Source of the DNA: an uncultured Eubacteriales bacterium
Lineage (GTDB): Bacteria; Acidobacteriota; Aminicenantia; Aminicenantales; UBA8522
Direction: 5' to 3'
NCBI GenBank assembly: GCA_964445305.1
Contig: CAYUKK010000020.1
Span: 6,352-70,351, forward strand
Length of the DNA stretch: 64,000 bases
Part shown: positions 7,101-30,165 of the stretch, piece by piece
How positions within the stretch are numbered: position 1 is the first letter of the stretch
Layout: each line of letters starts with the position of its first letter
The notes under the pieces: generated by a model
The model's input: the letters and a program-made list of their open reading frames with translations, nothing else
Told to the model about the DNA's origin: nothing
Database searches by the model: none
Program-made: the position numbers and the translations under genes

Positions 7101-7629
7101 GGCCCTGCCAGGAAAGGGCGGCAAAGTCGGCATCCCCATCCCCGTCAAAATCGCCGGCGCCAAGAGCCATGATTTCATAGGTTCTAAAGGTCGAAAGATA
7201 GTCGATGTAGTAAGGTCCGTTAAAAGCAAAGCGAAGCGGATCACCGGGGTCTTTTCCGCGGCTGATAAAAATGGCGATATTCGTGTCTGTGGCGTTAGCG
7301 TTGTTGTCGCATGTCCGGCCTCCCTCGACAAGGTCAACCAGTCCATCGCCGTTGAAGTCTGCTGCTGCGCCCGTCATCCGGTAGTTCGTCGTCACTGGAT
7401 AGTTACTCGTCTCCTTCCAGTTGGCTCCCTTGCCCTTGAGGCGGAGAAAGCGAATCGCCCCTTCCGCATCACTTTCGATGCCGTCCATGACGGCGAGGAC
7501 AGAAGGGTCGCCGCGGTAGCCGACAACGCGGTCGCTCTGAGTTTCACAAACCTGGCTATGGGCCCGGATATAAAATAAAGCTGCCAGGCCAAATCCCAAA
7601 ATGATTAGCCCTAAGTAAAGTTTCTTCAT
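4108..7629 (-). CDS. pilY1: PilY1-like type IV pilus tip adhesin/biogenesis protein with N-terminal FG-GAP (integrin-alpha-like) repeats
   Basis: 1173 aa with an N-terminal signal peptide (MKKLYLGLIILGFGLAALFY). Multiple DxDGDGxxD FG-GAP/VCBS repeats in the N-terminal half. The central and C-terminal region carries the PilY1 propeller signature (VVLVGANDGMLHCFDAATLEELWAFIP). It is the last gene of a minor-pilin operon. Confidence 0.75.
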   Translation of the reverse strand: MKKLYLGLIILGFGLAALFYIRAHSQVCETQSDRVVGYRGDPSVLAVMDGIESDAEGAIRFLRLKGKGANWKETSNYPVTTNYRMTGAAADFNGDGLVDLVEGGRTCDNNANATDTNIAIFISRGKDPGDPLRFAFNGPYYIDYLSTFRTYEIMALGAGDFDGDGDADFAALSWQGRLWIFKNLYVENNLSPGDIPQFDSVPTLLGDLIADGYGEFGTDSRYWRWESNIECVDVDGDRDLDLIVGIPTYRARNRWGLVVIYINNGSGVFSRLAQTINPYPASAQYGVCGVAAGDFDGDGDVDFMVGSANSRDLYFYRNDGGSFRQDNRKTVTIPASHGSCTYLRSGDVDNDGDVDFVLATDGWTANPPGGYVYWYENDGTGIFTSRPIPESGAQVSPSGDLDSGAIGDFDDDGDLDFFVADGNDSRNCYFFMNETYPIYVKEGTTYSRNRLACDFITSDHALVAATIYVDETKPAGTNIVYYLSNSNDITGNPRWEGPVTPRVEFEFESPGNFLRWKAVFSTTDEALTPKLWTLDIEYKYITKREYSRTSHAFTTVDVNPSQEGNEEVLYSASFEFPKWKGHLRSWNVSDLELAYTRGSQLADILDVGATFIEDAGVNLRARDWSSRVVYTAYDREADGIMNDRLDFAPSEADTLDDFLQLGIGSPEVVPLIRFVLGDSRDWKLGDINHSSPKVLEPPRGTPSLMGSGYEAFKEAYKNRRKVVLVGANDGMLHCFDAATLEELWAFIPNNLLYKLRRMRVLDPDCGYYLNHEFFVDGTPSIQDVYYGGGWHTVVVCGQGSGWGKNQKCYYFALDVTDPESPQPLWEFTDEYMGETWSVPAIAKIESPNKWVVFFGSGYDNDNDPREKIGHYFYVVDVETGSLIKSFEIAERREPTSPFGIQNTLPGSPAVVDKDDNGFADAVYFGDLIGRVWKIDLTDDVRKWEPTVIYRDPYLHPIVTRPAIFVNKVDKTVSLYVGTGGDDKAPDTEYYSFVAIKDTGASATVEWYLGPDDLATRLGINIDRKKGEFVQGEKVWADDIIADRIVYIATLQGSIESLNPCQALAGSGKLYARYILGNQMGGTALLSAEGAPEAYKVTKQKVRSAVTIGETQIISGEEGQQAVMKRKVFVQSFTQPGEGGPEPPSQVLAQPVPQTALVIKSWREVYKVYKDIRR

Positions 7630-7654
7630 GGCCGCTTCCTTTTCCTTTTTTCGT

Positions 7655-8209
7655 TTATGTCGATTCCTGGATTTCTATCATGACTTCGATTCTGGCATAG
7701 GTATTCCGGCCGGCCCGGCCGATGCAGATAACAAGGCAATCACGGTCGTTGGGAGTGCCTCCGCCGGCCTCATCATTAATCAAGAAGACCGTGTAACTCA
7801 GAGACGGGTCGTTGGGTAGAGGTCGGCTAAGGAAGAGAACGTTGGTCGGGTCCCTCTCGAATTCAGCGATGAGCTCAGCATCGGTGAGAAGGCGGAAATA
7901 ATAGGGGTTGTCTACGGCGGAGGTCGGCGGGACATCCAGTGGCTGCCCGTTATAAGTCGTCCGGTATTGGGAGGAGAAATCCGTTATCGCGCCGCTGACG
8001 ATGTTTTCATTCAGCACCCGCCATGCGGCGTCAAACCCGGCTTCGGCAGCGTTAAAAGCGCGCTCCTGCAGCCGGATATTCCCCGCCACTTGAGGCCCCG
8101 TACCGGTCACGTAAAGCAGGGTGAGACCGACCGCGAAAAGAAAGGCAATGACCATGATGAGGACGATGATTCCCGCCCCTCGCTCTTTGTGGTCTTTTGG
8201 GCTGCCCAT
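7655..8209 (-). CDS. pilX: PilX-like type IV minor pilin
   Basis: Start set at the internal ATG giving MGSPKDHKERGAGIIVLIMVIAFLFAVGLTLLYV, i.e. the PilX N-terminal hydrophobic helix plus a short polar leader. The ORF-track start at 8473 would overlap pilW by 250 bp. Position between pilW and pilY1 is canonical. Confidence 0.6.
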   Translation of the reverse strand: MGSPKDHKERGAGIIVLIMVIAFLFAVGLTLLYVTGTGPQVAGNIRLQERAFNAAEAGFDAAWRVLNENIVSGAITDFSSQYRTTYNGQPLDVPPTSAVDNPYYFRLLTDAELIAEFERDPTNVLFLSRPLPNDPSLSYTVFLINDEAGGGTPNDRDCLVICIGRAGRNTYARIEVMIEIQEST

Positions 8210-8220
8210 TTTTTGCCTCG

Positions 8221-9339
8221 CTAACGGGTCCCCGTGTTGTATAAATTCAGGCTCAAGTTTCGCATCGTCGACGAGGATTCGAGGAGGAACCTCTTGTGCC
8301 TGTCCGGCTGGTTTGAGCCCATCGTGTTCGAGAGAGGTGGCCTCTGGTAAAGATAAAGGTCGGACGGAGGGGTTCCAGAAACGCTGACAAAAGGCTGCGG
8401 CGTCCGGCCGAGGATATAAATCCTGATTTCCCGGATCCGGCTGACTTGGTCTAATGTCCACATATCCGACCAAGGACGAAAGCCATCCAGCCTGCCATCG
8501 TCATCCAAATCGCCATTGTATTCAAACTGAAGGTTCTCGACGTTCTGGGCTAAAGGATAATGGATGGCGTTGAGGGTCATGTAGAGAATCCCTCCCTGGC
8601 CATTTCCGATGTAGCCGCTAACCCCGGCCGTCAGACCTGGATAATTCCCGGTGACATCGAGCCAGAACTCCTTGACATCGATAAACGTCACGAGACCGCC
8701 GTCATAATCGTTCGAGCTGGCACATGTTCCAGACAGCCCCCCGGGTGGGTTAATTCCTGGGGCGAGGCCGGGCGAGAAGTTTAGCCTCTCATTTGTTCCG
8801 CCCGTGCTGTGGGTGACGTGGGTAATCTTGCGTACTTCCCCCGCCCGACAGGCAGAGCTCGGGTTAGGAAGAATCAGGACGACCTTATTGGCATAGTATT
8901 CATCAGGATAGGGATACTGCTCAAGGGAGTAGTCTTCCAAGGACAAGTTGATGCTCGCCCCTTGGTAGCTCTCGATCTCAAGGACGAGGGGATCCTCGAT
9001 ATTGCCCATCATGAGGAGGCGGTCTGGCGTTACCTCCGCACCCTGGTCCTCATTGTCTGTGCCCTCAAAATAATAACCGCAAAATTCAATCGGCAAACCC
9101 ACTCCGGCCATCCGGATATCCCGAGCGATAAAATACATGGCCGAGCGGATATCATGCTGGAGCTCGGCGTACATGCTGTGGTCCACAGAAACCTTGTTGC
9201 TCCTCATGTAAACAGCCAGAGCCCCGACAATGATAACGAGCATAGCTGCGCTGGCCACGAGGAGCTCAATCAGCGTGAAGCCATTGCCCCGGCCTCCATC
9301 TTTTTTGTCCCTGAATATTTTTTGAGCTTTCCTGGTCAT
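8221..9339 (-). CDS. pilW: PilW-like type IV pilus minor pilin
   Basis: The N-terminus has a class III signal with a prepilin cleavage/methylation motif (GNGFTLIELLVASAAMLVIIVG). About 370 aa, typical PilW size. Operon position between pilV and pilX. Confidence 0.7.
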   Translation of the reverse strand: MTRKAQKIFRDKKDGGRGNGFTLIELLVASAAMLVIIVGALAVYMRSNKVSVDHSMYAELQHDIRSAMYFIARDIRMAGVGLPIEFCGYYFEGTDNEDQGAEVTPDRLLMMGNIEDPLVLEIESYQGASINLSLEDYSLEQYPYPDEYYANKVVLILPNPSSACRAGEVRKITHVTHSTGGTNERLNFSPGLAPGINPPGGLSGTCASSNDYDGGLVTFIDVKEFWLDVTGNYPGLTAGVSGYIGNGQGGILYMTLNAIHYPLAQNVENLQFEYNGDLDDDGRLDGFRPWSDMWTLDQVSRIREIRIYILGRTPQPFVSVSGTPPSDLYLYQRPPLSNTMGSNQPDRHKRFLLESSSTMRNLSLNLYNTGTR

Positions 9340-9357
9340 TTTTCCCCGCCGCTCATC

Positions 9358-9849
9358 CTATCGACTGATGATCGTGCTCACCATCGCCCGAACGCGGTAG
9401 CGCTGCGGGTCGCTGATGAGCTGAGCCCTTTCCTTATCGAATTGCTCTTGGGAGAAAACATAAACGTCCACCTCCCAGGCACTCATGGTAAACTCTGTGG
9501 AATTCCGGACACGGGTTATCCGACGGTAGTCGTTGGAAGTGTCGCCGTTGATGTCGATGAGCTCGTCCCAGGAAATGTCGGGGACTCCATCATTGTTAAG
9601 GTCGATATTAGCGTTGGAGGTGAGATAGTCCAGCTCGGCCACAGTCAAGTTCCTCAGGGCATCCACCCTTTGCTGGGCCAGAAAGGAAGCCCCCGTAATC
9701 CTGTCCGACCGCATGTTGTTGAGCACACTCAGGGTGAACATTTCCGCCAGGCCGAGCACAGCGATGGCCAGCAAAGCAATCCCGATAACGACTTCGATAA
9801 GGGTGAAAGCAGCCTCAGCGCCCAGCTTCCGTAGCATCTTATCTTTCAT
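9358..9849 (-). CDS. pilV: PilV-like type IV minor pilin
   Basis: Prepilin-type N-terminus AFTLIEVVIGIALLAIAVLGL. Start chosen at the ATG preceded by GGAGGGAAGG (MKDKMLRKLGAEAAFTLIEV). The ORF-track start at 9909 would overlap the upstream gene. Confidence 0.6.
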   Translation of the reverse strand: MKDKMLRKLGAEAAFTLIEVVIGIALLAIAVLGLAEMFTLSVLNNMRSDRITGASFLAQQRVDALRNLTVAELDYLTSNANIDLNNDGVPDISWDELIDINGDTSNDYRRITRVRNSTEFTMSAWEVDVYVFSQEQFDKERAQLISDPQRYRVRAMVSTIISR

Positions 9850-9871
9850 CCTTCCCTCCATCTCCGCTCCA

Positions 9872-10417
9872 TCAAGTGGATTTGACGTATTGAATTGACC
9901 CACCGGCATAGATGATGATATTCCGCGTGCCGGGTTGCCCTTTGGCGCTCAGATTAGGGCTTTGAAGGGAAATATTGTGCTGGGCCGGATTGTAATTGAG
10001 GACCATCCCCAGGGGGTTGAAAACAACCACCTGGTTTGGTACGTTCACCGTCACAACATACTTGGCGGGAATCGTTTTTCGCCATTCTTGGGACACCCTT
10101 ACCCAGGTCCCCGACTGCTCCTCGCGTTCCACATAGTAAGCCCAGTAGCCTTCGCTATTATCGAAGGTGAGCCGGTGCTTGAGTTTGAGCTTGACGGCCT
10201 GGAATTTAACCTGGTGGAGCGTGGTGAGAACTTCCCGGGCGCTGTTTTCCAGGCCTCGAGTCTCCAAGGTGTTGAGAATGGCCGGATAACTGGCCACAAG
10301 AAGAATGCCCAGAATGGCGACGACCACGATCATCTCGATGGCCGTAAAACCCCTGTTGAGCAGATTTTTCCTCACGGTGGGGAAGATTATTGTCCAATCA
10401 TCGTTTTTTGTCAACAT
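9872..10417 (-). CDS. FimT/GspH-like type IV minor (pseudo)pilin
   Basis: RGFTAIEMIVVVAILGILLV prepilin motif. An in-frame GTG at 10375 would give the textbook short leader MRKNLLNR-GFT, so the true start may be 10375 rather than 10417. First gene of the minor-pilin operon. Confidence 0.6.
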   Translation of the reverse strand: MLTKNDDWTIIFPTVRKNLLNRGFTAIEMIVVVAILGILLVASYPAILNTLETRGLENSAREVLTTLHQVKFQAVKLKLKHRLTFDNSEGYWAYYVEREEQSGTWVRVSQEWRKTIPAKYVVTVNVPNQVVVFNPLGMVLNYNPAQHNISLQSPNLSAKGQPGTRNIIIYAGGSIQYVKST

Positions 10418-18203: not shown

Positions 18204-18326
18204 GCCAGCCTCGTCCATTGTCTTTTCTTTTCCCGGCCGATTTCGCGAGATTGGGCATGTTTCCAAAATAAGAGGGCAGGGTCGTTGGTTTGACCACGGG
18301 GCCGAAAACGACTATAATAAGAGAGC

Positions 18327-20123
18327 GTGATCTGGAAGAAAGCTCACTCGCCAGGAACCCCCGAAATCCAAGACTCCGAGCTGGTTAGCCCGGCCCAGGT
18401 AACGAAGGTCAAGGAAATCCTTCTCCTTTTCGCCAGCGCTGTCCAAGCCGCGAAGATATTTCCACCCCATCACCGGACTGTTCTCAACTTCGCTTCCGAC
18501 CTCCACGCCAAGCTTAAAGATTATCTCGACCGGTACTATAAGCTTGAGCTTGGCGTTGAGGAAAAAGCCTTTACATTTTTTGGGGATAAAGTGTACGAGG
18601 ACCCTCACCCCGTCAAGAGTTTGCCTTTTTTCTTCTTTAAGGACGGAATGCAAACACTCTATTTTTACCGCGGCTTGAGCATCGAGGAAGTGAGAGCTTT
18701 CCTCGAAACGATCAGGAAGGTCTCCCAGCTTCCACCCGAGGAGGGGGATATCGTCAGCGCTCTCTGGGAGCAGGACTTCCCCAATATCCGCTATGTTGCT
18801 CCCGATGATTTCCTGGAGACCCGGATCGGTGTGGGCAAGCCGCCTCTCGAAATGCGCGTCGACAGGGAAGAGTTTTCTCGGGGCCGGATCGACCTGGCGC
18901 CAGAGGACCTGGAGGAAATCCGCACGGACGCACTCAAAGAAAGGAGCCGCGAACCCATGCCCGGGGGGGAAGCCATCCCCGCTTTGCCCGAAAAATTCAA
19001 CCTTCTGTTGATGCCATCGGATGAGAAGGAGCTTGAGGAGATAGAGGCCCTCCTCCTTTCCAGCCGAAAAGTCTCCTCAGAAGAAGAACACCAGAGCCTG
19101 GCCACCGAGCTCCTGTGTCTGGAAGAGAGAAAGGACCAGTGGCCCGGCTTAGCGGCAGCCCTTAAGGAAATGCACCACACAGCCCTCCAGAAAAAGGATT
19201 TTGGAAGCGCTTCCCGTCTCCTCATCTCCCTTCACGAGCTCAGGGATGCCGTCTTCGAGGAGAATGGGGAAAAAGCCGCGTTTATCGACTCCCTCATCGT
19301 CGAGATGGGCCAGGATAGCCTGTTGGCTGAGCTTCAGGATTCTTTGGAGTGGACGCGCCTCCAGGATACAGATTCTTTCCTGGAGTATCTGAGTCTTCTC
19401 GGCCCCGGAGCGGGCCGTCTGGCCGCTTCCCTGTTTGAGGCGACAGTGGATCCCCACCTCCGTCAGAAAATTCTCCATATTCTCGAAGCCATAGGAAAAA
19501 AGGACAGCGACGCCTTGATCATGCTCGCCCAGGATTCCAAGCCGTCCCTGACCAAGGAAATCATCCGGCTCATCGGTCGACTCCATGAGAAAAAACCTCT
19601 CCCCTTTCTGGCTGGTTTTATCCGGTCCCAGAGCAAAGACATTAAACTCGAAGCCATCCGGGTCCTCGGCCAGGCCGGCGAGGAAGCAGCGGATAGGATT
19701 CTCCTCGGCTTTTTGTCTGACGGCGATGAGGCAGTGCGCATCGCCGCCCTGCAAAGACTTAACACCATCCATACATCCGTCCTCCCCTATCTCCTGGCCC
19801 TGACGAGGAACAAAGCTTTCAAGAAAAAAAGCCTGGCGGAAATCAAGGCCGTCTTCGATGGCCTGGCCCGAAGTGGCTCGCCAGAGGCGGGCTCTGTTCT
19901 AAAAATCTACCTTCAAAAATGCTTCTGGTGGTCAAGTCCGAAAAAAACAGAGATAGCCTGCCTCGCCGTAGCGGCGCTGAGCGCAATGCCTGATGCCTTG
20001 GCCAGAGAAGCCTTGCGAAAAGGTTCTAAAGCCAAATCCAAAAAGGTCAGACGGGCCTGCCTGGAGGCTTTGTCTTCTTTCCACCGTGAAGATTCCCACT
20101 CGGAGTCTGGGACAAGAGTATGA
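18327..20123 (+). CDS. HEAT/ARM-repeat protein with an N-terminal domain homologous to the N-terminus of the downstream HD-GYP protein
   Basis: 598 aa with a GTG start. The C-terminal half has HEAT-like repeats (DEAVRIAALQRL, KKVRRACLEALS). The N-terminal segment (AVQAAKIFPPHHRTVLNF...) aligns with the N-terminus of the next gene (LKSARIYEPHNTLFQRQV...). A 4-nt ATGA overlap with the downstream gene. Confidence 0.55.
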   Translation: MIWKKAHSPGTPEIQDSELVSPAQVTKVKEILLLFASAVQAAKIFPPHHRTVLNFASDLHAKLKDYLDRYYKLELGVEEKAFTFFGDKVYEDPHPVKSLPFFFFKDGMQTLYFYRGLSIEEVRAFLETIRKVSQLPPEEGDIVSALWEQDFPNIRYVAPDDFLETRIGVGKPPLEMRVDREEFSRGRIDLAPEDLEEIRTDALKERSREPMPGGEAIPALPEKFNLLLMPSDEKELEEIEALLLSSRKVSSEEEHQSLATELLCLEERKDQWPGLAAALKEMHHTALQKKDFGSASRLLISLHELRDAVFEENGEKAAFIDSLIVEMGQDSLLAELQDSLEWTRLQDTDSFLEYLSLLGPGAGRLAASLFEATVDPHLRQKILHILEAIGKKDSDALIMLAQDSKPSLTKEIIRLIGRLHEKKPLPFLAGFIRSQSKDIKLEAIRVLGQAGEEAADRILLGFLSDGDEAVRIAALQRLNTIHTSVLPYLLALTRNKAFKKKSLAEIKAVFDGLARSGSPEAGSVLKIYLQKCFWWSSPKKTEIACLAVAALSAMPDALAREALRKGSKAKSKKVRRACLEALSSFHREDSHSESGTRV

Positions 20124-21571
20124 GTGCCCCGGCGTTGAAAAAGAGCGAAGGCGAGACCAGCCGGGCACTCCACAGCCTGGCTGTCGAAATCATCATCCGC
20201 CTCCACGCTGTGTTGAAAAGTGCCCGCATCTATGAGCCCCATAACACTCTTTTTCAGCGTCAGGTTTCCCTGCTCTTATCCCTCATCCGCAAGGCGATGG
20301 CAGAATTCGGGGAAGCTGCGTTCTCCATCCGCCAGAGCACTCTTTTTTTCAACAATATCCGGCTCCGGTACGGGTTTGCCAATTATCATTTTTTCAAATT
20401 CGTTATCGAAGAGTTCAGAAAAAGAGGGGTCGGCAGCCTCCGTTTCGAACCCGGTCTGAACGCCGCCGACCTCACCTCCTTCATCCATCTTCTAGCCCGG
20501 GGAGAAGAAAAGCGGGCCGAACCTTCGCAGGCCATCGCTTCCGAGATGAAGAAAATGGGAGTGAGGACCATCACCATGGAAAAAACACTCCCAGCTGACC
20601 TCGCTCCACGCCGGGAGAAGGCGGCAGCCAAGGCCTTTTTTCTGGGCATCACCCATCTTGAAGAGGCTTTCGCCAGCGCCGCCTCGGAGGAGAAAATCAA
20701 GCTCAGCACCACCCGCCGGCTCATGCAGGCGATCTTCAATCACATCGTCGACAACGAAGCCTTTGTCCAGGGCCTGACCAATATCAAGAACTTCCATGAA
20801 TATACGCTCAACCACTCGATGAACGTCTGCATTCTGGCCATCGCCCTGGGAAAGAGGCTCGGGCTGGACAGGAACGAACTTGTGGATTTGGGGATAAGCG
20901 CCTTTTTCCACGACTTCGGAAAGCTCGACACCCCCCGGGAAATCCTGGAGAAGCCAGCGCGGCTCGATGACCAGGAAAGAAAGATTATCGAGAAACACCC
21001 CTACCAGGGCGCGGCCAAGCTGGTCCAGTTCAAGGGGTTCAAGAACCTTCCCGTCCACGCTGTCCATGTAGCCATGGAGCATCACATCAAGGAAGATTGG
21101 GGGGGCTACCCGCGCTTTTTTCGAAAACAGACGATCAGCCTGTTCAGCAAGATCGTTAAAATTGTCGATTTTTTTGACGCCATCACGACCAAGCGCCCTT
21201 ACCGCTCAAGGGTCTACACCCGAGACGAAGCCCTGAGCTTGATGCTCGAGCAATCAGGAAAAGAATTCCATCCTGTGCTCCTTCGGGAATTCGTCAGGAT
21301 GATGGGCATTTACCCCGTTGGTACCCTGGTCATGCTGGATACAGGGGAGCTTGGCATCGTCGTCCAGAATCACTCCGAGACAGAACTCCTGCTTCGACCT
21401 CTGGTCAAGCTCATTACTGATGCTGACAGAAACAAATTGGACGGCGACATCGTCGACTTGAGCGAGCTTGACCCCGAGACGAACAAGTACAAGAAAACCA
21501 TCATCAAAACCCTCGACCCCGAAAAGTATCATATCCGCGTCACCGACTATCTTTTGGCTCAGGCGGAATGA
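20120..21571 (+). CDS. HD-GYP domain cyclic-di-GMP phosphodiesterase with N-terminal sensor-like (DUF3391-type) domain
   Basis: HD motif (AFFHDFGKLDTP), metal-binding HHIKED, and the HD-GYP signature WGGYP. 483 aa. Confidence 0.8.
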   Translation: MSAPALKKSEGETSRALHSLAVEIIIRLHAVLKSARIYEPHNTLFQRQVSLLLSLIRKAMAEFGEAAFSIRQSTLFFNNIRLRYGFANYHFFKFVIEEFRKRGVGSLRFEPGLNAADLTSFIHLLARGEEKRAEPSQAIASEMKKMGVRTITMEKTLPADLAPRREKAAAKAFFLGITHLEEAFASAASEEKIKLSTTRRLMQAIFNHIVDNEAFVQGLTNIKNFHEYTLNHSMNVCILAIALGKRLGLDRNELVDLGISAFFHDFGKLDTPREILEKPARLDDQERKIIEKHPYQGAAKLVQFKGFKNLPVHAVHVAMEHHIKEDWGGYPRFFRKQTISLFSKIVKIVDFFDAITTKRPYRSRVYTRDEALSLMLEQSGKEFHPVLLREFVRMMGIYPVGTLVMLDTGELGIVVQNHSETELLLRPLVKLITDADRNKLDGDIVDLSELDPETNKYKKTIIKTLDPEKYHIRVTDYLLAQAE

Positions 21572-21646: not shown

Positions 21647-22336
21647 ATGGCTATGATCAGTCCTGAGGTCCAGGAAGCAACCAAGAAAAAACTTTCCTCG
21701 GAAATGGCCGAGCGGGTGACCATCCTCTTTTTTACCCAGGAGCCCAGCCGACTGGTTTTGCCCGACCGTCTCCAGGGGCAAGAATGTCTCTACTGTCAGG
21801 AAACAAGACAGTTGCTCGAGGAAGTGGTCAGCCTGACCGACAAGATTGACCTCAGAACACATGATTTTGTGGCTGAAAAAGCTAAGGCCGATGAACTCGG
21901 CGTGGACAAAATTCCTGCCATCGTCATCAGCCCCGAACAAGGCTACGGAATTCGGTTTTTCGGCATTCCCTCGGGCTATGAGTACGTGAGCCTTCTCGAA
22001 GCCGTCGTCGACGTTTCTCGTCGCCGCACAGCTCTGGCCGAGAAAACAAAGACAGCTCTGGCCGACCTGGCGAACGACGTCCATATCCAGGTCTTTGTCA
22101 CTCCCACCTGTCCCTACTGCACTTTGGCGGTTCGCCTGGCCCACCAGTTTGCCGTAGAAAGTCCGCGCATCCGCGCCGACATGGTCGAAGCGACGGAATT
22201 CCCCCACCTGGCCCAAAAATACCACGTTTTTGGTGTCCCCAAGACCGTTATAAACGAAGCCGTATTCATCGAAGGAGCAGTTCCCGAATCTGTCTTTCTC
22301 GACCATGTCCTCCGAGCGGCTAAGCCGGTTAGGTAG
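21647..22336 (+). CDS. Glutaredoxin-like protein disulfide oxidoreductase (two thioredoxin-fold units, 2x CxxC)
   Basis: Two CxxC active sites (CLYC and CPYC) in a 229-aa protein. The architecture resembles PDO/glutaredoxin-like proteins of thermophiles and anaerobes. Confidence 0.6.
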   Translation: MAMISPEVQEATKKKLSSEMAERVTILFFTQEPSRLVLPDRLQGQECLYCQETRQLLEEVVSLTDKIDLRTHDFVAEKAKADELGVDKIPAIVISPEQGYGIRFFGIPSGYEYVSLLEAVVDVSRRRTALAEKTKTALADLANDVHIQVFVTPTCPYCTLAVRLAHQFAVESPRIRADMVEATEFPHLAQKYHVFGVPKTVINEAVFIEGAVPESVFLDHVLRAAKPVR

Positions 22337-22342
22337 CGTTCC

Positions 22343-24460
22343 ATGGAAGGACTTGAGGCGATTTTCTACCCGCGGTCGATTGCAGTCGTGGGCGCTTCCC
22401 GGCAGGCAGGTAGCGTTGGCCAGTCCGTCCTCGCCAACCTCATCGGCAGTCGATTTCAGGGAGTGGTCTTCCCGGTCAACCCCCATGCCCAGAGCATTCT
22501 TGGCATCAAAGCTTATGCCCGAATATCGGATGTTTCCGATGTGATTGACCTGGCCGTTATTGTCGTTCCCAGCCCCATCGTGCCCGCTGTCCTTGAAGAG
22601 TGCGGTCAGAAGGGAGTCAGGGGAGCGATCATTATCACGGCTGGGTTTAAAGAAATCGGCGGGGCAGGAATTGAACTCGAGGAACGCGTCCAGAAGATCG
22701 CCAACCATCATGGCATTACCCTCGTCGGGCCGAATTGCCTTGGGGTTATCAACACCGACCCTGGCGTGTCCATGAACGCCACTTTTGGCACGCAAATGCC
22801 CAGAGAGGGAAATATCGCCTTCATCTCCCAGAGTGGAGCACTCTGCGTGGCGGTGCTCGATTATGCCAAGGAAGCGAATATCGGCTTTTCCAAGTTCATC
22901 AGCATGGGCAACAAAGCTGGTGTCAACGAAAATGAGCTCCTCCAGTATCTCCAATCCGACCCCAAAACGGGCGTCATCCTCATGTACCTGGAAGACCTTG
23001 TCCGCGGCCGTGATTTTATGGACATCGCCCGCCAAATCACGAGTTCGAAGAAGCGACCCAAGCCTATCCTCGCTCTCAAGGCCGGCCGAACCATGGTGGG
23101 AGCGCGCGCCGCTTCCTCCCACACGGGCTCCCTGGCCGGCTCGGATCGAGTCTATGATGCCATCTTTGAACAGTGCGGTGTCTTGCGCGTCGACACCCTT
23201 GAAGAACTCTTCGATTATGTCAAGGCCTTCTCCAGACAACCGTTGCCCAGGGGCCGGAATGTGGCCATCATTACCAACTCGGGCGGCCCGGGCATTCTGG
23301 CCACGGATTCGTGCATCCAGCATAACCTCAACGTTCCCCGACTCACTCCCGCCACCAAAAAAAGCCTGCGTCAAATTCTGCCGGCCACAGCCAGCCTCCA
23401 CAACCCCATCGACCTCATCGCCGAGGCCCAGGAAGAACAGTACGAGATTTCGCTCCGGGCTGTGCTCCGGGATAGGAACGTCCATTCAGCCATCGTCATC
23501 CTGACGCCAACCGCTTTCACCCGAGTCGAAAGCATCGCCAGGGCCATCGTCAACGTCGCCCGCGCCTCCCAAAAACCTGTCCTGTGCTGTTTTCTCGGAA
23601 TTTACGATGTTTCCAAGGGGGTGGGCATCCTTGAGCAAAACGGCATCCCCAATTTCAGGTTTCCTGAATCGGCGGCGCGTGTCCTGGCCGAAATGGCCAA
23701 CTTCACCGACTGGCTGAATAGGCCGCAGACGGGCATCAAAATTTACCGCGCCGATAAAGAAAAAGCTCGGGCTATCCTCGACGTGGTTTGTCAAGAAGGA
23801 CGTCAGTTTCTCCTCGAGCATGAGGCTTACGAAGTTCTCAAAGCCTACGGCTTCCCGGTCGTCAGGTCAGTCCTCGCCCACACCGAGCGGGAGGCGGTGG
23901 AGGCGGCCGAAAAACTTGGCTTCCCGGTGGTCATGAAAATCGCCTCACCGGATATCGTTCATAAATTTGATTATGGTGGCGTCAAACTGGGTCTCAAGAG
24001 CAAAAGCGATGTGCGGAAAGCCTACGAGGAAATCAAAGAGCGCGTGCTCCAGGCCAAGCCAGAAGCAAGGATTGTCGGTTTACTCATCGAGGAGATGGTC
24101 CAGGGCGGCAAGGAAGTGATTCTGGGCATGAACCGGGATCCTCAATTCGGCCCTATCCTCATGTTCGGCATGGGCGGGATTTATGTCGAGGCGCTCGAAG
24201 ATGTCTCCTTCCGTCTCGCCCCCATCCGGGAGTATTCCGCCCTGGCCATGATCCGGAGGACGAAAACCCACCGCATTCTGGAAGGATTCCGCGGCGGACC
24301 TGTCTACGACGTCGACGCTGTAGCTGACTGTCTCAAGCGGCTCAGCCAGCTGGTCGTCGACTTCGAGGAGATCCAGGAGCTGGACATTAACCCGCTCATC
24401 GTGCTCGAGAAAGGAAGGGGGGCGAGAATTGTCGACGCCCGCATGGTCATCCGAGGGTAG
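22343..24460 (+). CDS. Acetate--CoA ligase (ADP-forming), fused alpha/beta (CoA-binding + succinyl-CoA-synthetase-like + ATP-grasp)
   Basis: N-terminal CoA-binding Rossmann motif (IAVVGASRQAGSVG), the ligase-CoA domain, and a C-terminal ATP-grasp. 705 aa. No GNAT domain, so not a Pat acetyltransferase. Confidence 0.75.
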   Translation: MEGLEAIFYPRSIAVVGASRQAGSVGQSVLANLIGSRFQGVVFPVNPHAQSILGIKAYARISDVSDVIDLAVIVVPSPIVPAVLEECGQKGVRGAIIITAGFKEIGGAGIELEERVQKIANHHGITLVGPNCLGVINTDPGVSMNATFGTQMPREGNIAFISQSGALCVAVLDYAKEANIGFSKFISMGNKAGVNENELLQYLQSDPKTGVILMYLEDLVRGRDFMDIARQITSSKKRPKPILALKAGRTMVGARAASSHTGSLAGSDRVYDAIFEQCGVLRVDTLEELFDYVKAFSRQPLPRGRNVAIITNSGGPGILATDSCIQHNLNVPRLTPATKKSLRQILPATASLHNPIDLIAEAQEEQYEISLRAVLRDRNVHSAIVILTPTAFTRVESIARAIVNVARASQKPVLCCFLGIYDVSKGVGILEQNGIPNFRFPESAARVLAEMANFTDWLNRPQTGIKIYRADKEKARAILDVVCQEGRQFLLEHEAYEVLKAYGFPVVRSVLAHTEREAVEAAEKLGFPVVMKIASPDIVHKFDYGGVKLGLKSKSDVRKAYEEIKERVLQAKPEARIVGLLIEEMVQGGKEVILGMNRDPQFGPILMFGMGGIYVEALEDVSFRLAPIREYSALAMIRRTKTHRILEGFRGGPVYDVDAVADCLKRLSQLVVDFEEIQELDINPLIVLEKGRGARIVDARMVIRG

Positions 24461-24469
24461 TCTGGTCGG

Positions 24470-24480
24470 TCCTGTGCTAT
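24470..24480 (+). promoter_or_regulatory. Candidate -10 box (TATAAT) upstream of the first NPP-family gene
   Basis: gtgcTATAATggtc lies about 15 nt upstream of the ATG at 24495. Sequence-only. Confidence 0.25.
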
Positions 24481-24494
24481 AATGGTCTTTAAAA

Positions 24495-25799
24495 ATGGCG
24501 TGGCTAAAAAAGAAGAGAAAGCCTTCAGTCTGCATCATCGGCCTCGACGGGGTGCCGCACTCCCTCGTCATGGACTTGACCAGCCGGTCGATTATGCCCG
24601 CCCTTGCTCAGCTCATTGACCGAGGCTCTCTCCGTCGATTGAGAGCGAGCCTTCCCGAAATTTCAGCCGTGAGCTGGACGGATTTCATGACCGGCGCCAA
24701 CTCCGGAACGCACGGCATCTTCGGGTTCACCGACTTTAAGCGTGGCTCCTATGAAATCCGTTTCCCCAATTTTTTGGACCTCAAGTGCCCCACTTTCTGG
24801 GACCGCTTGGCTGAGATGGGCAAGAGATGCATCATCATCAACCAGCCTTCCACTTATCCGGCGCGCCGGGTGAACGGCATCCTTATCTCCGGGTTTGTCG
24901 CTCTCGAGCTTGAGAGGGCGGTCTATCCCCCCTCCGAAAAAGCGAACCTCGAGAAGATGGGCTACCAGATTGATATCGACACGGTGAAGGCCAGGCAGGA
25001 TGCCGACTTCCTCTGGCAGGAGCTTGACCGAACCTTCACCAGCCGAGAGCGCGCGTTTCGGCATTTTTGGCAAGGGGATTGGGATTACTTTGAGCTGGTC
25101 ATTACCGGGACAGATAGGCTTCACCATTTCCTCTGGCGGTCGGGTTTGGACCCCCAGAACTCCCACCATCAAAAATTCCTGGATTATTACCGCCGCATCG
25201 ACCGCTTCATTGGCGAAATTGCTTCTGCTTTTGAGAAGCTCACAGGAGGTCTGGAAGGATTCTATATTCTCTCCGACCACGGATTTTGCAGCATCGAAAA
25301 AGAAGTATACCTCAATGCCTGGCTGGAGAGGGAAGGCTACCTTCGATTCCGGGCTAATGAGGCGAAAGGGCTGGAGGAGATAGCCGACGGGAGTGTGGCT
25401 TTCGCCCTCGACCCCAGCCGCATTTACCTTAACGTCGAGGGTCGATTCCCGCGCGGCATCGTGACCCCGGCCGAGCGCGACATTCTAAGAAAAGAGATTG
25501 GCCAGAAGCTGGCCCGGCTCGAGGACGGGGGGAAGAAAGTCATCCGCCATGTCTTTCGGGCCGAGGAGGTCTATTCTGGACCTCTTCTTCCTGAGGGCCC
25601 TGACCTCATTGTGGTCTCAGAACCCGGTTTCGACATCAAGGGGTCAGTGAAAAAAAGGGAGGTTTTCGGTTCAACCGACCTCCAGGGCATGCACACCTGG
25701 GAGGATGCTTTCGTCTGGTCGATCACTCCCCTCGGCCAGAACCTGGCCATTGGCCAGTTGGCTGGGTTTATCCTTGATCACTTCAACGAAAAAAGATAA
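24495..25799 (+). CDS. Alkaline-phosphatase-superfamily type I phosphodiesterase/nucleotide pyrophosphatase family protein (paralog 1)
   Basis: 434 aa. An NPP-core nucleophile region (IIGLDGVPHS...ISAVSWTDFMTGANSGTHGIF) and a distal metal-site motif (LSDHGF). Confidence 0.7.
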   Translation: MAWLKKKRKPSVCIIGLDGVPHSLVMDLTSRSIMPALAQLIDRGSLRRLRASLPEISAVSWTDFMTGANSGTHGIFGFTDFKRGSYEIRFPNFLDLKCPTFWDRLAEMGKRCIIINQPSTYPARRVNGILISGFVALELERAVYPPSEKANLEKMGYQIDIDTVKARQDADFLWQELDRTFTSRERAFRHFWQGDWDYFELVITGTDRLHHFLWRSGLDPQNSHHQKFLDYYRRIDRFIGEIASAFEKLTGGLEGFYILSDHGFCSIEKEVYLNAWLEREGYLRFRANEAKGLEEIADGSVAFALDPSRIYLNVEGRFPRGIVTPAERDILRKEIGQKLARLEDGGKKVIRHVFRAEEVYSGPLLPEGPDLIVVSEPGFDIKGSVKKREVFGSTDLQGMHTWEDAFVWSITPLGQNLAIGQLAGFILDHFNEKR

Positions 25800-25801
25800 G
25801 G

Positions 25802-28171
25802 ATGCTGAAAAAAACAGCCCTTGGCTCGCCAGAGCAACAAAACCGGTTCCCTCTCGGCGGGGCCCCCCGCCGGCCCGAGCGTTTGAGGCTAATGTTCTAC
25901 CTCCTTGATAATCAACAAGATAGTCGGCGAGGGGGCGCCGGGGGTGAACCGCGACAGGACCCGTCGGGTGATTCTATCGGCAATCCTGGGTTCAGGCCAG
26001 CACGGAGGCCGCTCAAAGTCGGAGGGAAGATCTATCGATACGCCGCACCCTTGAAAATTTGCTACTTCCTTTGCTTGGGCGCCCTGACCATCTTGTGTTT
26101 GCCTGTCGAAGCTTACATCGGCCCTGGGGCTGGTTTCGCCTTCCTCTCTTCCTTCCTCGTTTTCTTTCTCACCTTTTTTCTGGCCTTGTTTTCTTTCCTT
26201 TCCTGGCCAATTCGATTCTTTTTCCGTCTGCTCAAGGGAAAAAGAGCTTATCGGAAAGCTCAAGTCGGTCGAATTGTCATCATCGGGCTTGACGGTTTGG
26301 AACCCAAGCTGGTGGAAAAATACATGGCGGAAGGCAAATTGCCGCACCTGGCCAAGCTCCGTAAAGTCGGAAGCTACACAAGACTCCGAACCACGACGCC
26401 GGCCATTTCTCCAGTCGCCTGGTCTTCTTTCATGACCGGAACCGAGCCATCCAAGCACAACATTTTCGACTTTCTGCGTCGAGAACCCAAGACCTACCTG
26501 CCCGAACTCTCCTCAGCTCGCATCGGCCCACCCCGCCGCGTCTTATCCATAGGAAAATACAGACTGCCTCTGGCCAGGCCCGAAATCAGGAATTATCGAA
26601 AAAGCATTCCCTTTTGGAAAACTCTCGGCGAGGCTGGCATTTTCAGCACTGTGCTGCGGGTTCCCATCACCTTTCCGCCCGAAAAATTTGCTGGCCATCT
26701 CCTCGCCGGCATGTGCACACCCGACCTCAAAGGGAGCCAGGGGACGTTCGCTTTTTACACCACCAACAAGAGTAAAGTCCACCGAAAAGAGGGCGGCATA
26801 GTCATTCCCGTCGACGTTGTGGACGGTCGCATCCAGACCTACGTTTCTGGGCCTGAGAATTCGCTCTTGAAAAAACCAGAGGAAATCCGCCTTCCGCTGA
26901 TTATCCGCATCGACGCTGGCCGAGGCGAAGCGGTGCTCGCTGTTTCTGGTGAGCGGTTCAGGCTCAAGCCACGAGTTTTTTCTCCCTGGATCAGGCTCGT
27001 TTTCCGAGCCGGGCTGGGGATTAAAATCCGCGCCATTGCCAAGTTTTATGTTTCCTCGCTCGAGCCGGACTTCGAGATGTACGTTACCCCGCTCAACATC
27101 GACCCAGAAAAACCGGCTCTCCCCATTGCCCATCCTTTCCTCTATTCTGTCTACTTGAGCAAGCTCCTGGGAAGCTTCATCACGCTGGGAGAAGCCAACG
27201 ACACTTGGGCGTTGAATGAAGGAGTGTTGAAGGAAGACGCCTTCCTCGAACTCACCTACTCCAACCATGCCGAATGGGAAGCGATGCTTTTCAACGCCAT
27301 CGACAAGACGAGAAAAGGAGTGGTCGTTTGTGTCTTTGAAACAACGGACAGCATCCAGCACATGTTCTGGCGCTATCTTGATTCCCATCATCCTGCCCTG
27401 AAAACCACGACCCCGACGATGAACGCTCGCGTCATCGAGGAGCTTTACCAGCGCATGGACGACCTCGTGGGAAGAGTGAGCCAAAAAGCGGGTCCGCGGA
27501 GCTTGCTCTTGGTCATGTCCGACCATGGTTTCGCCTCCTTCCGCCGCGGCGTCAACCTGAATTCATGGCTTTACACTAACGGATACCTCTCTCTCAAGGA
27601 TGGGAAAGAAGAAAGCGAGGAATGGCACAAGGACGTCGATTGGGAAAGGACAAGAGCTTATGCCCTTGGTCTGGGCGGCCTCTACATCAACCAGAAGGGC
27701 CGGGAAGCCCAAGGCATCGTTTCACCTGGCCAGGAAACAGAGGTTCTTAAAGCAGAGCTCATCAAAAAGTTGCGCCTTCTCCGGGACGAGGAAAAAGGAG
27801 AAGTGGCTATCACGGAAGTTTACGATAGCGAGCGCCTTTATGCCGGCCCATACAAAGAGAATGCCCCCGACCTCATCATCGGTTACAATCAGGGTTACCG
27901 GGCGTCCTGGGATGGAGTGACGGGAAAAGTCTCCCGGCGTGTTTTTGAGGATAACCTCAAAGCCTGGAGTGGAGACCATTGCATCGACCCGACGCATGTC
28001 CCCGGCGTGCTCTTCTCCAGCTGGAAGCTGAGCGCCACATCACCCTCGATCATGGATATCGCCCCGACCGTGTTGAGCCTTTTTGGCCTGCCCATCCCTG
28101 CTCACATGGACGGCAAGCCCCTTTTCGAAAGAGGGTCGAGCTTTTCGAAGAAGAAAGGAAAAGAAAAATGA
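25802..28171 (+). CDS. NPP/alkaline-phosphatase-family protein (paralog 2) with an N-terminal membrane anchor; start codon uncertain
   Basis: Catalytic core VIIGLDGLEP...TTPAISPVAWSSFMTGTEPSKHNIF, distal motifs MSDHGF and WSGDHC, and N-terminal hydrophobic helices. The maximal ORF begins at 25802, but copy 3 of the conserved element sits at 25931-25990. The real start may therefore be downstream, for example TTG 26051 or the earlier ATG 25892. The stop overlaps the start of paralog 3. Confidence 0.6.
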   Translation: MLKKTALGSPEQQNRFPLGGAPRRPERLRLMFYLLDNQQDSRRGGAGGEPRQDPSGDSIGNPGFRPARRPLKVGGKIYRYAAPLKICYFLCLGALTILCLPVEAYIGPGAGFAFLSSFLVFFLTFFLALFSFLSWPIRFFFRLLKGKRAYRKAQVGRIVIIGLDGLEPKLVEKYMAEGKLPHLAKLRKVGSYTRLRTTTPAISPVAWSSFMTGTEPSKHNIFDFLRREPKTYLPELSSARIGPPRRVLSIGKYRLPLARPEIRNYRKSIPFWKTLGEAGIFSTVLRVPITFPPEKFAGHLLAGMCTPDLKGSQGTFAFYTTNKSKVHRKEGGIVIPVDVVDGRIQTYVSGPENSLLKKPEEIRLPLIIRIDAGRGEAVLAVSGERFRLKPRVFSPWIRLVFRAGLGIKIRAIAKFYVSSLEPDFEMYVTPLNIDPEKPALPIAHPFLYSVYLSKLLGSFITLGEANDTWALNEGVLKEDAFLELTYSNHAEWEAMLFNAIDKTRKGVVVCVFETTDSIQHMFWRYLDSHHPALKTTTPTMNARVIEELYQRMDDLVGRVSQKAGPRSLLLVMSDHGFASFRRGVNLNSWLYTNGYLSLKDGKEESEEWHKDVDWERTRAYALGLGGLYINQKGREAQGIVSPGQETEVLKAELIKKLRLLRDEEKGEVAITEVYDSERLYAGPYKENAPDLIIGYNQGYRASWDGVTGKVSRRVFEDNLKAWSGDHCIDPTHVPGVLFSSWKLSATSPSIMDIAPTVLSLFGLPIPAHMDGKPLFERGSSFSKKKGKEK
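25931..25990. repeat. Copy 3 of the conserved roughly 65-nt element
   Basis: gggggcgccgggggtgaaccgcgacaggacccgtcgggtgattctatcggcaatcctggg. Lies inside the 5' part of the maximal ORF of paralog 2. Confidence 0.6.
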
Positions 28172-30165
28172 ACCCGATAAAAAGAAGAGACTTCCTCAAG
28201 TGGGGGGTCGTCACTACCTCTTTTCTGGCCTGGGGCGGCAACCCACCGCTCATCTCCAAGACAGGAGGAAAAAGGGAGACAGGGACGAAAATCCTCGTCC
28301 TCGGGTTTGATGGCCTCGACCCCCGCCTTCTCGCGAGATGGATGGAGGAAGGAAGGCTCCCCGCATTCCAGCGTCTGGCCAATCAAGGCAGTTTCCAGCC
28401 CCTCCAGACCAGCATCCCGCCCCAGAGCCCTGTCGCCTGGGCAAATTTCATCACCGGCATGGACCCTGGTGGTCATGGCATTTTCGACTTCATGCACCGC
28501 GACCCAAGCTCCTACATTCCCATTTTCTCTGCCTCTTCGACCGAAGAAGCCAAATCGACGGTCAAGCTGGGAAACTTAGTCCTCCCTCTTGGTGGAGGAA
28601 AAGTAAGGAATCTCATCCGTGGCCCGGCCTTCTGGCAGTTACTTGAGGAAGACGATATCCCGGCCACAATCTTTAAGATGCCGTCCAACTATCCGCCCGT
28701 GCCGACCAAACAAAGGACTCTCTCCGGGATGGGAACACCGGACATCAAGGGCTATTATGGCCTTTTCAATTATTATACGACGCAGCCCATCGAGATCAAC
28801 GAAGACATCGGCGGCGGCCGTATCCACAGGGTTCAGGTCGTCAACAACACGGTCGAGGCCAGCCTGCCAGGCCCGACGAATACCTTCCGCCGAGACAGGC
28901 CTGAGTCCACTCTCAATTTCAAGGTGATTCTGGACCCTGTCCATCCCGTGGCCAAGATTACCTATCCAGGAGAAGAGTTTATCCTGCGGGAGAGAGAATG
29001 GAGCGGCTGGAAAAGAGTTCGTTTCCATCTTATCCCTACCCAGAGCGTCAGCGGCATCTGCATGTTTTACCTCAAGGAAATCAGGCCTCACTTCAAGCTC
29101 TACGTCTCAGCTATCCACATCGACCCAGCCGAACCTGCTCTCCCCATTTCGACTCCAGAGAGCTACGCCAAGGAACTCGAGAAAAAATTTGGCCCCTTCT
29201 TCACTAAGGGTTTACCCGCTGACACCAGTGCCCTCGACCACGATGTCCTCGACGAGGGAGAGTTCCTCGAGCAGGACAACATGGTTCTGGAAGAACGCAA
29301 GCGAATGTTCGAGTATGAATTCAATCGCTTTGATTCGGGGCTTCTCTTTTATTACGTCTCGAGCACGGACCAGCGACAGCACATGTTCTGGCGGCTTCTC
29401 GATGAGAGTCATCCGATGTACGACGCTCAGCTGGCCTCCAAATATGGCCGGACCATCGAGAATATCTATATCGAGGCCGACATGCTCCTCGACAGAGTCC
29501 TTCAGAGAATATCCCGCGACACCCTCCTTCTCGTCATGTCTGACCACGGGTTCAACCCCTTCCGCAGGGGTTTCAACCTTAACACTTGGCTCTTCGAAAA
29601 CGGCTATCACAGGCTGCGCAACCCCTGGCGCCGCGAGGAGAGCAGCCTCTTCGATAACACCGATTGGTCAAGAACGAAGGCTTATGGAGTGGGTCTCAAC
29701 GGTCTCTATCTTAACCTGCGAGGCCGGGAAAGGGAGGGTATCGTCAACCCCGGCGCGGAGAGTGACAACCTCCTCCATGAACTCGCCCGGCGGCTCGAGG
29801 AGGTCACCGACCCGAAGACCGGCCAGCGCGCCATCCTCCACGCTTACATCACCAAGGAAGTCTATCAAGGCAGGCATCTCGAGCATGCGCCAGATATAGT
29901 CCTCGGGTTCAACTACGGCTACCGGATTTCCTGGGGATCTCCGCTCGGCAGGTTCCCGCGCTCGGTCTTCGAGGACAACACAGAAAAATGGAGCGGCGAC
30001 CACATGAGCGCGCCGGATGTCATCCCCGGCATTCTCCTGACCAATCGCCCGGTTAAAGCCTCCCGACCCGCCCTCCATGACCTCACGGCGACCATCCTCA
30101 GCGTTTACGGCATTCCGAAGCCAAAGGAGATGATTGGCCGCTCCATCTTCGAAGAAGGAGGATAA
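28168..30165 (+). CDS. NPP/alkaline-phosphatase-family protein (paralog 3), Tat-secreted
   Basis: Start at the ATG overlapping the upstream stop (ATGA), with an AAAGGAAAAG ribosome-binding site. Twin-arginine signal MNPIKRRDFLKWGVV. Clear paralogy to paralog 2 (ILVLGFDGLDP..., MSDHGF, WSGDHM). 665 aa. Confidence 0.75.
   Translation: MNPIKRRDFLKWGVVTTSFLAWGGNPPLISKTGGKRETGTKILVLGFDGLDPRLLARWMEEGRLPAFQRLANQGSFQPLQTSIPPQSPVAWANFITGMDPGGHGIFDFMHRDPSSYIPIFSASSTEEAKSTVKLGNLVLPLGGGKVRNLIRGPAFWQLLEEDDIPATIFKMPSNYPPVPTKQRTLSGMGTPDIKGYYGLFNYYTTQPIEINEDIGGGRIHRVQVVNNTVEASLPGPTNTFRRDRPESTLNFKVILDPVHPVAKITYPGEEFILREREWSGWKRVRFHLIPTQSVSGICMFYLKEIRPHFKLYVSAIHIDPAEPALPISTPESYAKELEKKFGPFFTKGLPADTSALDHDVLDEGEFLEQDNMVLEERKRMFEYEFNRFDSGLLFYYVSSTDQRQHMFWRLLDESHPMYDAQLASKYGRTIENIYIEADMLLDRVLQRISRDTLLLVMSDHGFNPFRRGFNLNTWLFENGYHRLRNPWRREESSLFDNTDWSRTKAYGVGLNGLYLNLRGREREGIVNPGAESDNLLHELARRLEEVTDPKTGQRAILHAYITKEVYQGRHLEHAPDIVLGFNYGYRISWGSPLGRFPRSVFEDNTEKWSGDHMSAPDVIPGILLTNRPVKASRPALHDLTATILSVYGIPKPKEMIGRSIFEEGG

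Follow-up and report, generated by a model that had tools for sequence, protein, structure and literature searches.

A shared N-terminal domain in a HEAT-repeat protein and an HD-GYP phosphodiesterase encoded by a conserved gene pair in Candidatus Aminicenantes

Two adjacent genes in a 64,000-nucleotide (nt) stretch of contig CAYUKK010000020.1 (the window) encode proteins that begin with a homologous domain of about 135 residues. Positions 18327-21571 of the window are occupied by two open reading frames (ORFs) on the forward strand, A and then B. Gene A (18327..20123) has a GTG start and encodes 598 amino acids (aa), comprising the N-terminal domain (N-domain) and HEAT repeats without a catalytic domain. 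Gene B (20120..21571) has an ATG start and encodes 483 aa, comprising the N-domain, an HD-GYP phosphodiesterase and a C-terminal domain. The shared domain is new, matching no entry in Pfam 2025, NCBIfam 20 or the Protein Data Bank (PDB). Of the two enzyme classes that degrade cyclic di-GMP (c-di-GMP), the HD-GYP phosphodiesterases are understood less well, and HD-GYP enzymes with N-terminal regulatory domains were already known; what is new here is the shared domain itself, together with the presence of a duplicated copy on an obligate HEAT-repeat partner.

Homology and identity of the N-terminal domain

The N-domain of A spans 18387..18821 (aa 21-165, with aa 21-156 aligned to B by hhalign), and that of B spans 20159..20584 (aa 14-155), both on the forward strand. 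An initial annotation of the window had reported similarity between the two N-termini. The similarity is real when deep profiles are compared, and pairwise alignment by itself was insufficient to establish it. BLASTP of the two N-termini was marginal (E=0.013, 19% identity over 100 aa), and shallow profiles of 4-5 sequences gave E=0.035 with a probability of 1.5%. Word-indexed homologue searches gave 3, 4 and 13 proteins, and the necessary depth was supplied by searching exhaustively for relatives of the A N-domain with HMMER. At E<=1e-3 this gave 2332 clusters, of which the 150 top-scoring ones were inspected, and nearly all of these were ~590-600 aa long. A hidden Markov model (HMM) built from 146 A-family N-domains matched B of the window at 28-29 bits (E=3.5e-11 as a single comparison), collinear over HMM positions 26-136. 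As controls, 2000 composition-preserving shuffles of the first 200 residues of B reached a maximum of 8.9 bits, and the reversed sequence scored -1.5.

Deep profiles were made from the N-domains of 77 A and 69 B orthologues taken from genome loci. Comparison of these two profiles using hhalign was significant, with a probability of 94.7% and E=5.9e-8 over 136 columns (A 21-156 vs B 14-153), and an independent local hhalign run gave a probability of 93.2% and E=2.9e-7. When full-length A and B profiles were used, the alignment was confined to the N-domain. Reciprocal HMM searches were run against ~4500 ORFs from the window and 90 loci, and all inspected matches, covering the listed weak hits and selected loci, fell within A or B genes. 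Internal repeats were sought in both N-domains, and none were found. Confident AlphaFold2 (AF2) models were obtained for A 1-185 (predicted local distance difference test score, pLDDT, 88; predicted template modelling score, pTM, 0.76) and for B 1-200 (pLDDT 78.9, pTM 0.71). Both have the same element order, consisting of two long helices, three short strands forming a beta unit, a helix, a strand, two helices and a strand, and the A vs B alignment is collinear across the strands as well as the helices. Homology of the A and B N-domains is established by the deep HMM and hhalign scores, the shuffle control, the reciprocal matches and the common element order of the models. A chance or compositional resemblance of two helical N-termini in genes that are merely neighbors would suit the marginal BLASTP result and the non-significant shallow profiles, but it is excluded by the deep hhalign comparison, the 29 bits against <=8.9 bits in the shuffles and the reciprocal matches in A and B genes only, and both the collinearity through strands and helices and the retention of the A-B pair in every evaluable locus examined stand against it.

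One detail of the initial annotation did not hold beyond the window: the (I/Y)xPH motif that had been described as conserved is confined to the window proteins, and the two families differ at that turn. Between helices 1 and 2, the A family has K-I-F/Y-P-x-x-H, with H49 ~90% conserved, and the matching turn of the B family is K/R-I-Y-E-P-N-N, with N42 invariant. The aligned conserved position is therefore A-H49/B-N42 and not the P-H pair.

The identity of the domain was sought by family, profile and structure searches. Pfam left the first ~190 residues of window A and of window B without assignment, and NCBIfam added nothing specific for the window proteins. Across the 69 B and 77 A N-domains, no recurrent Pfam family was found at E<=1, including DUF3391, GAF, PAS and REC. 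Profile searches of PDB sequences with the A and B N-domains gave nothing below E=0.4, and Foldseek searches of both AF2 models against the PDB gave best E-values of 2.2 and 0.83, with all TM-scores <0.3. Several candidates were thus rejected. A DUF3391-type domain (PF11871), which had been raised in the initial annotation, was absent at E<=1 from the window proteins and from the 69 B and 77 A N-domains; the element order also differs from the DUF3391 fold described in the HD-GYP architecture census of Galperin and Chou (2021), in which four beta-strands are followed by two long helices. GAF, whose fold is a six-stranded antiparallel sheet with helices at its flanks, was rejected since no Pfam GAF was found in the 69 B members and Foldseek TM-scores to GAF structures were ~0.15, and REC was rejected since there was no PF00072 match. 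The census reports many HD-GYP members with unrecognised N-terminal regions; its architectures include REC, GAF, DUF3391, DUF3369 and several membrane domains, and HEAT partners are not mentioned. The two alignments of the A and B N-domains, together with the two models, provide a sequence definition able to seed a new domain family, of which the A-type family alone comprises ~2300 clusters at 50% identity.

The conserved gene pair and its two proteins

The A family was scanned across genomes, giving 80 species-level (GTDB) loci, essentially all from Candidatus Aminicenantes metagenome-assembled genomes (MAGs). In 77 of the 80, A is followed on its own strand by a B orthologue, with no gene in between except at locus L037, and the remaining three contigs end just beyond A. 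A start codon for B is located -14 to +18 nt from the stop codon of A in 71/71 evaluable loci. In the window, the two genes overlap by 4 nt at 20120..20123 on the forward strand (gagtATGAgtg), where the ATG of B overlaps the TGA of A, as the initial annotation had stated, and the identical overlap is present in 24/71 orthologous loci. This close spacing is consistent with translational coupling. At L037:4938-11794, in an Aminicenantes-like MAG, the whole unit occurs in tandem as A1-B1-A2-B2, with A1/A2 51% and B1/B2 65% identical; this duplicated pair is a natural test case for cognate-pair specificity.

The same pair was found in five metagenome contigs with close relatives. In 6/6 distant or variant A members (N-domain E ~1e-21 to 1e-43), the next gene abuts or overlaps A and encodes an HD-GYP protein of ~470-540 aa, and in two of the loci (L086 and L089) the B-type HMM recognises the N-terminus of the downstream protein. 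The genes flanking the pair differ in all six, and the conserved unit is therefore the pair and not its neighborhood. Conservation as neighbors thus extends over the 77 evaluable species loci and all six distant or variant members. Since the N-termini are significantly similar and the pair is conserved far beyond close relatives, the initial annotation was correct in describing a duplicated module, one copy of which is on a non-catalytic HEAT scaffold whose gene directly precedes that of an HD-GYP enzyme. Among loci L006-L085, many MAGs with clear Aminicenantes-type pairs (31-53% identity to window A, 46-70% to window B) are labelled "uncultured Eubacteriales" or "Clostridiales", and one locus each bears the label "Candidatus Desulfaltia" or "Bathyarchaeia archaeon"; such labels probably reflect generic or wrong taxonomy or mis-binned contigs.

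Beyond the N-domain the two proteins diverge as previously described, with HEAT_2 in A and HD_5/HD plus the HD and GYP motifs in B. For B, Pfam identified HD_5 (1e-20) and HD (3.5e-11) over aa 229-385 and nothing else. The closest solved relatives are PmGH (PDB 4MCW, 1.5e-24) and V-cGAP3 (5Z7C, 1.1e-22), which match the HD-GYP part only. The NCBIfam NosR-type response-regulator model also covered only the HD-GYP part, at 74 bits vs a cut-off of 400. A helical connector (20618..20764, forward strand, aa 167-215, FFLxIxHLxExF ... TTRRLMQ) is near-invariant in the 69 orthologues and joins the N-domain to the HD-GYP core; helix 167-186 is present in the AF2 model of B, with low confidence there.

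The HD-GYP catalytic domain of B (20765..21304, forward strand, aa 216-395) was delimited using the PmGH alignment and the residues invariant in the 69 orthologues. The catalytic residues H232, H264-D265-K268, H293, H321-H322, G329-Y330-P331, D350/D353 and R359 are all kept and are invariant in these orthologues. The metal ligands H232, H264-D265, H293, H321-H322 and D350 correspond to PmGH H189, H221-D222, H250, H276-H277 and D305, so that B has the HD-superfamily core pattern H...HD...H...HH...D. The HD-GYP signature loop EHHIKEDWGGYP is present at 320-331, together with the substrate-binding residues K268 and R359, and EHH...GYP is conserved across the B family. The roles of the metal and substrate residues were defined in PmGH (PMC4159591). 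The eighth ligand, E185 in PmGH, which marks the trinuclear-iron subgroup, is replaced by Tyr228 in B, and EYTLNH around Tyr228 is invariant in the 69 B orthologues. With Tyr228 at the E185 position, B therefore belongs to the seven-ligand subgroup of PMC4159591, and a two-metal site would be expected. Because the metal and substrate motifs are invariant in the 69 orthologues, B is most likely an active enzyme and not a degenerate receptor. The C-terminal ~88 aa of B (21305..21568, forward strand, aa 396-483) carry the conserved pattern GxxPxGxLVxLxtGExGiv ... lRPxvKli ... DY, have no Pfam or NCBIfam match and form a domain absent from PmGH; this domain may be a further binding module.

For window A, Pfam identified HEAT repeats alone and no catalytic domain. 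The tandem HEAT hairpin repeats form a solenoid (19347..20096, forward strand, aa ~341-590), with HEAT_2 (PF13646, 7.8e-19) in five stretches over aa ~345-560, HEAT (PF02985, 5.1e-5) and HEAT_PBS, and aa 345-507 match designed alphaRep HEAT structures down to 2.4e-14. The public annotation of A is "HEAT repeat domain-containing protein" only. An anti-phage defence role was rejected, as the PADLOC match is to a generic HEAT repeat only. A variable acidic linker or middle region (18822..19346, forward strand, aa 166-340) is the least conserved block of A. Mean distances in the family alignments are 0.75 for the N-domain, 1.74 for the middle region and 1.33 for the HEAT region, making the N-domain the most conserved and slowest-evolving part of A. 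The motifs SLPFFFFKDG (98-107) and DIVxALWExDFxNIxYxAPDDFLE (141-164) are invariant in A and absent from B. Slow evolution of the N-domain and invariant motifs of surface type fit a conserved binding function. The copy of the N-domain in A also evolves more slowly than that of B (mean distance 1.23).

In some lineages, a Ser/Thr kinase is fused to the N-terminus of A, giving Pkinase + N-domain + HEAT proteins of 943-957 aa, and because such fusions occur, A is read as a signalling protein. The fusions were observed on marine (TARA) contigs (L086:3914-8268, also L087 and L088; proteins P0145 and P0156), and the kinase-fused A gene of L086 still has a 4-nt overlap with the downstream HD-GYP gene. 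Other loci have interrupted A genes. In two independent assemblies (L003:108-1308 and L004:451-1651), A is divided between two ORFs, one of 152 aa with the N-domain and one of 209 aa with HEAT repeats; the first ORF lacks DIVxALWE...APDDFLE, and the ~200-aa middle region is absent. Either the gene copy is decaying or A naturally exists here as two polypeptides. A similar split is present in L005 (153 + 426 aa). At L001:6201-9451 (ERZ25039502:contig_233767, a long-read-style contig), A and B are broken into several ORFs by apparent frameshifts. Out-of-frame tails of this kind are also present in proteins P0006 and P0165, and none of these entries is to be taken for a truncated natural variant.

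Upstream of gene A, a sigma-70-like consensus scan identified a promoter-like site, TTGACC-17-TATAAT (18290..18318, forward strand, 11/12 matches), which ends 8 nt 5' of the GTG. There are just two sense codons in frame upstream of this start (18290-18329). If this putative promoter works, the mRNA for A and B would have no leader or almost none, an unusual arrangement with a GTG start.

The initial annotation had also listed type IV pili and a PilZ-like protein in the window. The pilus genes are present as a minor-pilin cluster at 4108-10417 on the minus strand, including a 1173-aa PilY1 with FG-GAP repeats, a PilW-like protein and N-methyl pilins; the PilZ-like protein was not found, as no PilZ domain or signature was detected in any plausible ORF of the window. 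The cluster is 8 kb from the A-B pair on the opposite strand, with a P-type ATPase gene, an RNase-H-like gene and rhamnose catabolism genes in between. No pilus genes were found beside the pair in other genomes with annotated flanks. A link of the type IV pilus to the A-B pair is therefore unsupported, as synteny between the two is lacking elsewhere and no PilZ was found. Directly downstream of B, positions 21647-30165 contain a thioredoxin/glutaredoxin-like gene, an ADP-forming acetyl-CoA synthetase gene and three consecutive PF01663 genes (type I phosphodiesterase/nucleotide pyrophosphatase). This gene order is syntenic in close relatives only (L001-L003) and not in distant ones.

Proposed regulation of B by A

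We infer, with a probability of about one half, that A regulates B through the shared domain, N-domain to N-domain; the contact between A and B, the direction of control, the substrate and the signal are all part of this inference. The observations behind it are the homology of the N-domains, the strict gene pair, the close spacing, the co-duplication and the intact catalytic site of B. Strict pairing, close spacing and co-duplication point to A and B being made in stoichiometric amounts, as the subunits of complexes typically are. Heteromeric enzymes paired with a regulatory pseudo-paralogue offer an analogy, in function only. In PmGH, the dimer is assembled exclusively by the sensor domain at the N-terminus and the long helix that connects it to HD-GYP (PMC4159591); it is therefore plausible that a paralogous N-domain competes or partners at the same interface.

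In the proposed mechanism, A and B would be two subunits of one signalling module produced from a single translationally coupled transcript. B would be the catalytically competent HD-GYP cyclic-dinucleotide phosphodiesterase, its activity probably set by the N-terminal domain and the helix to the catalytic core, as in other HD-GYP enzymes. A is a non-catalytic paralogue of the N-terminal module of B, mounted on a HEAT-repeat solenoid. The A N-domain would pair with the B N-domain to form a heteromer that replaces the B-B homodimer or exists alongside it, which would let A switch, tune or localise the activity of B as a phosphodiesterase. The solenoid would attach to a third partner or to a site in the cell, and the input would come from this HEAT arm or, in some lineages, from the fused Ser/Thr kinase. 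A more specific and more tentative version is an obligate asymmetric heteromer in which the HEAT-bearing and catalytically empty paralogue, fused in some lineages to a Ser/Thr kinase, replaces one protomer of the N-domain dimer and the HEAT-bound target gates or localises activity. If true, this asymmetric heteromer would be a previously undescribed regulation of cyclic-dinucleotide turnover, on a fold without a solved Foldseek relative.

Several points weigh against regulation of B through paired N-domains. In a mirror-tree and partial-correlation analysis, no co-evolution signal specific to the A and B N-domains was found: their distance matrices correlate at r=0.82, which is not above other region pairs (0.66-0.86), and the mirror-tree is non-discriminating because all regions correlate in this range through shared phylogeny. 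The two N-domains are ~18% identical, their most conserved motifs differ, and each may by now serve a different partner or ligand. A conserved operon pair is just as much to be expected if the HEAT region, and not the N-domain, contacts B. A-like proteins without B, or the domain in other architectures, may exist, given that the best 150 of 2332 clusters were inspected. As for the substrate, c-di-GMP is assumed from the family membership of B, and the substrate could instead be 3'3'-cGAMP (cGAMP, cyclic GMP-AMP), because V-cGAP3, a cGAMP phosphodiesterase, scores close to the c-di-GMP phosphodiesterase PmGH. As a separate observation from the partial correlations, the strongest value for the A N-domain was with the HD-GYP core of B (0.40), vs 0.24 with the B N-domain.

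A less probable explanation, with perhaps the best claim among the alternatives, is that the shared domain senses a small ligand, with A and B binding the same signal independently and their N-domains not touching; B would then hydrolyse a cyclic dinucleotide and A would engage a HEAT-bound target. HD-GYP N-terminal domains are usually sensory according to the Galperin and Chou census, and the compact alpha/beta fold in the AF2 models, the conserved polar residue at the turn between helices 1 and 2 in both families (A-H49, B-N42) and the lack of a specific co-evolution signal between the two N-domains are all compatible with such sensors. However, the residues most conserved in A are not those most conserved in B, a difference that does not suggest one ligand pocket for both, Foldseek against the PDB gave no relative with a ligand-binding fold, and the strict adjacency, close spacing and co-duplication point to stoichiometric co-production.

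Slightly less likely still is a partnership in which A grips B through its solenoid, for example onto the conserved C-terminal domain or the HD-GYP lid of B, with the shared N-domain acting as a separate homo-oligomerisation module in each protein. HEAT repeats are generic protein-binding surfaces, B has a conserved C-terminal domain without a family match, and homodimerisation of PmGH is driven by its N-terminal domains (PMC4159591). The rates of evolution argue the other way, since the HEAT (1.33) and middle (1.74) regions evolve much faster than the A N-domain (0.75), and a fast HEAT region is the reverse of what is expected for a conserved interface with the slowly evolving B. Such a partnership also leaves unexplained why a paralogue of the B N-domain is on the partner in every lineage inspected.

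Significance and comparison with known systems

The shared domain defines one unrecognised HD-GYP N-terminal region as a discrete, confidently foldable domain, and the same domain is present on a dedicated same-operon HEAT-repeat partner in every evaluable genome examined. A testable hypothesis for control of an HD-GYP enzyme by a partner protein is thereby gained. The A-B system, with the mechanism proposed here, occurs mainly in one uncultured lineage. It gives a first point of entry into the second-messenger signalling of Aminicenantes, which are widespread and uncultured and for which no c-di-GMP work was found in a literature search.

Among known systems, NblB and bacterial PBS-lyase-type HEAT scaffolds resemble A in that HEAT_2, HEAT_PBS and NblB-type repeats are present in its C-terminal half. 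The match of A to NblB is at the level of repeats only (24.6 bits vs a cut-off of 300), and none of these scaffolds has the A N-domain or is linked to HD-GYP genes; a literature search found no paper linking HEAT repeats with HD-GYP. PmGH of Persephonella marina (GAF + HD-GYP, PDB 4MCW) is the best solved relative of the catalytic domain of B (E=1.5e-24) and has the same layout of an N-terminal regulatory domain, a long helix and HD-GYP. B differs in that its N-domain is not GAF, Tyr228 is in place of E185, and an extra C-terminal domain is present, and PmGH has no paralogous partner protein. The Bd1817 family (DUF3391 + HD-GYP, also PA4108 and VC2497) is similar to B in having a cytoplasmic N-terminal domain of unknown ligand and a long helix to the catalytic domain. 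In DUF3391, strands are followed by helices, whereas in the AF2 models of the A and B domain two long helices come first and are followed by a mixed alpha/beta part, when compared with the census description; 3TM8 matches only the HD-GYP part of B. In the RpfG family (REC + HD-GYP), as established for this family and in the census, output depends on the N-terminal regulatory domain and on protein-protein contacts, which resembles what is proposed for B. Unlike RpfG, B has no REC domain, its input is not a histidine kinase, and its partner is a same-operon paralogue of its own N-domain.

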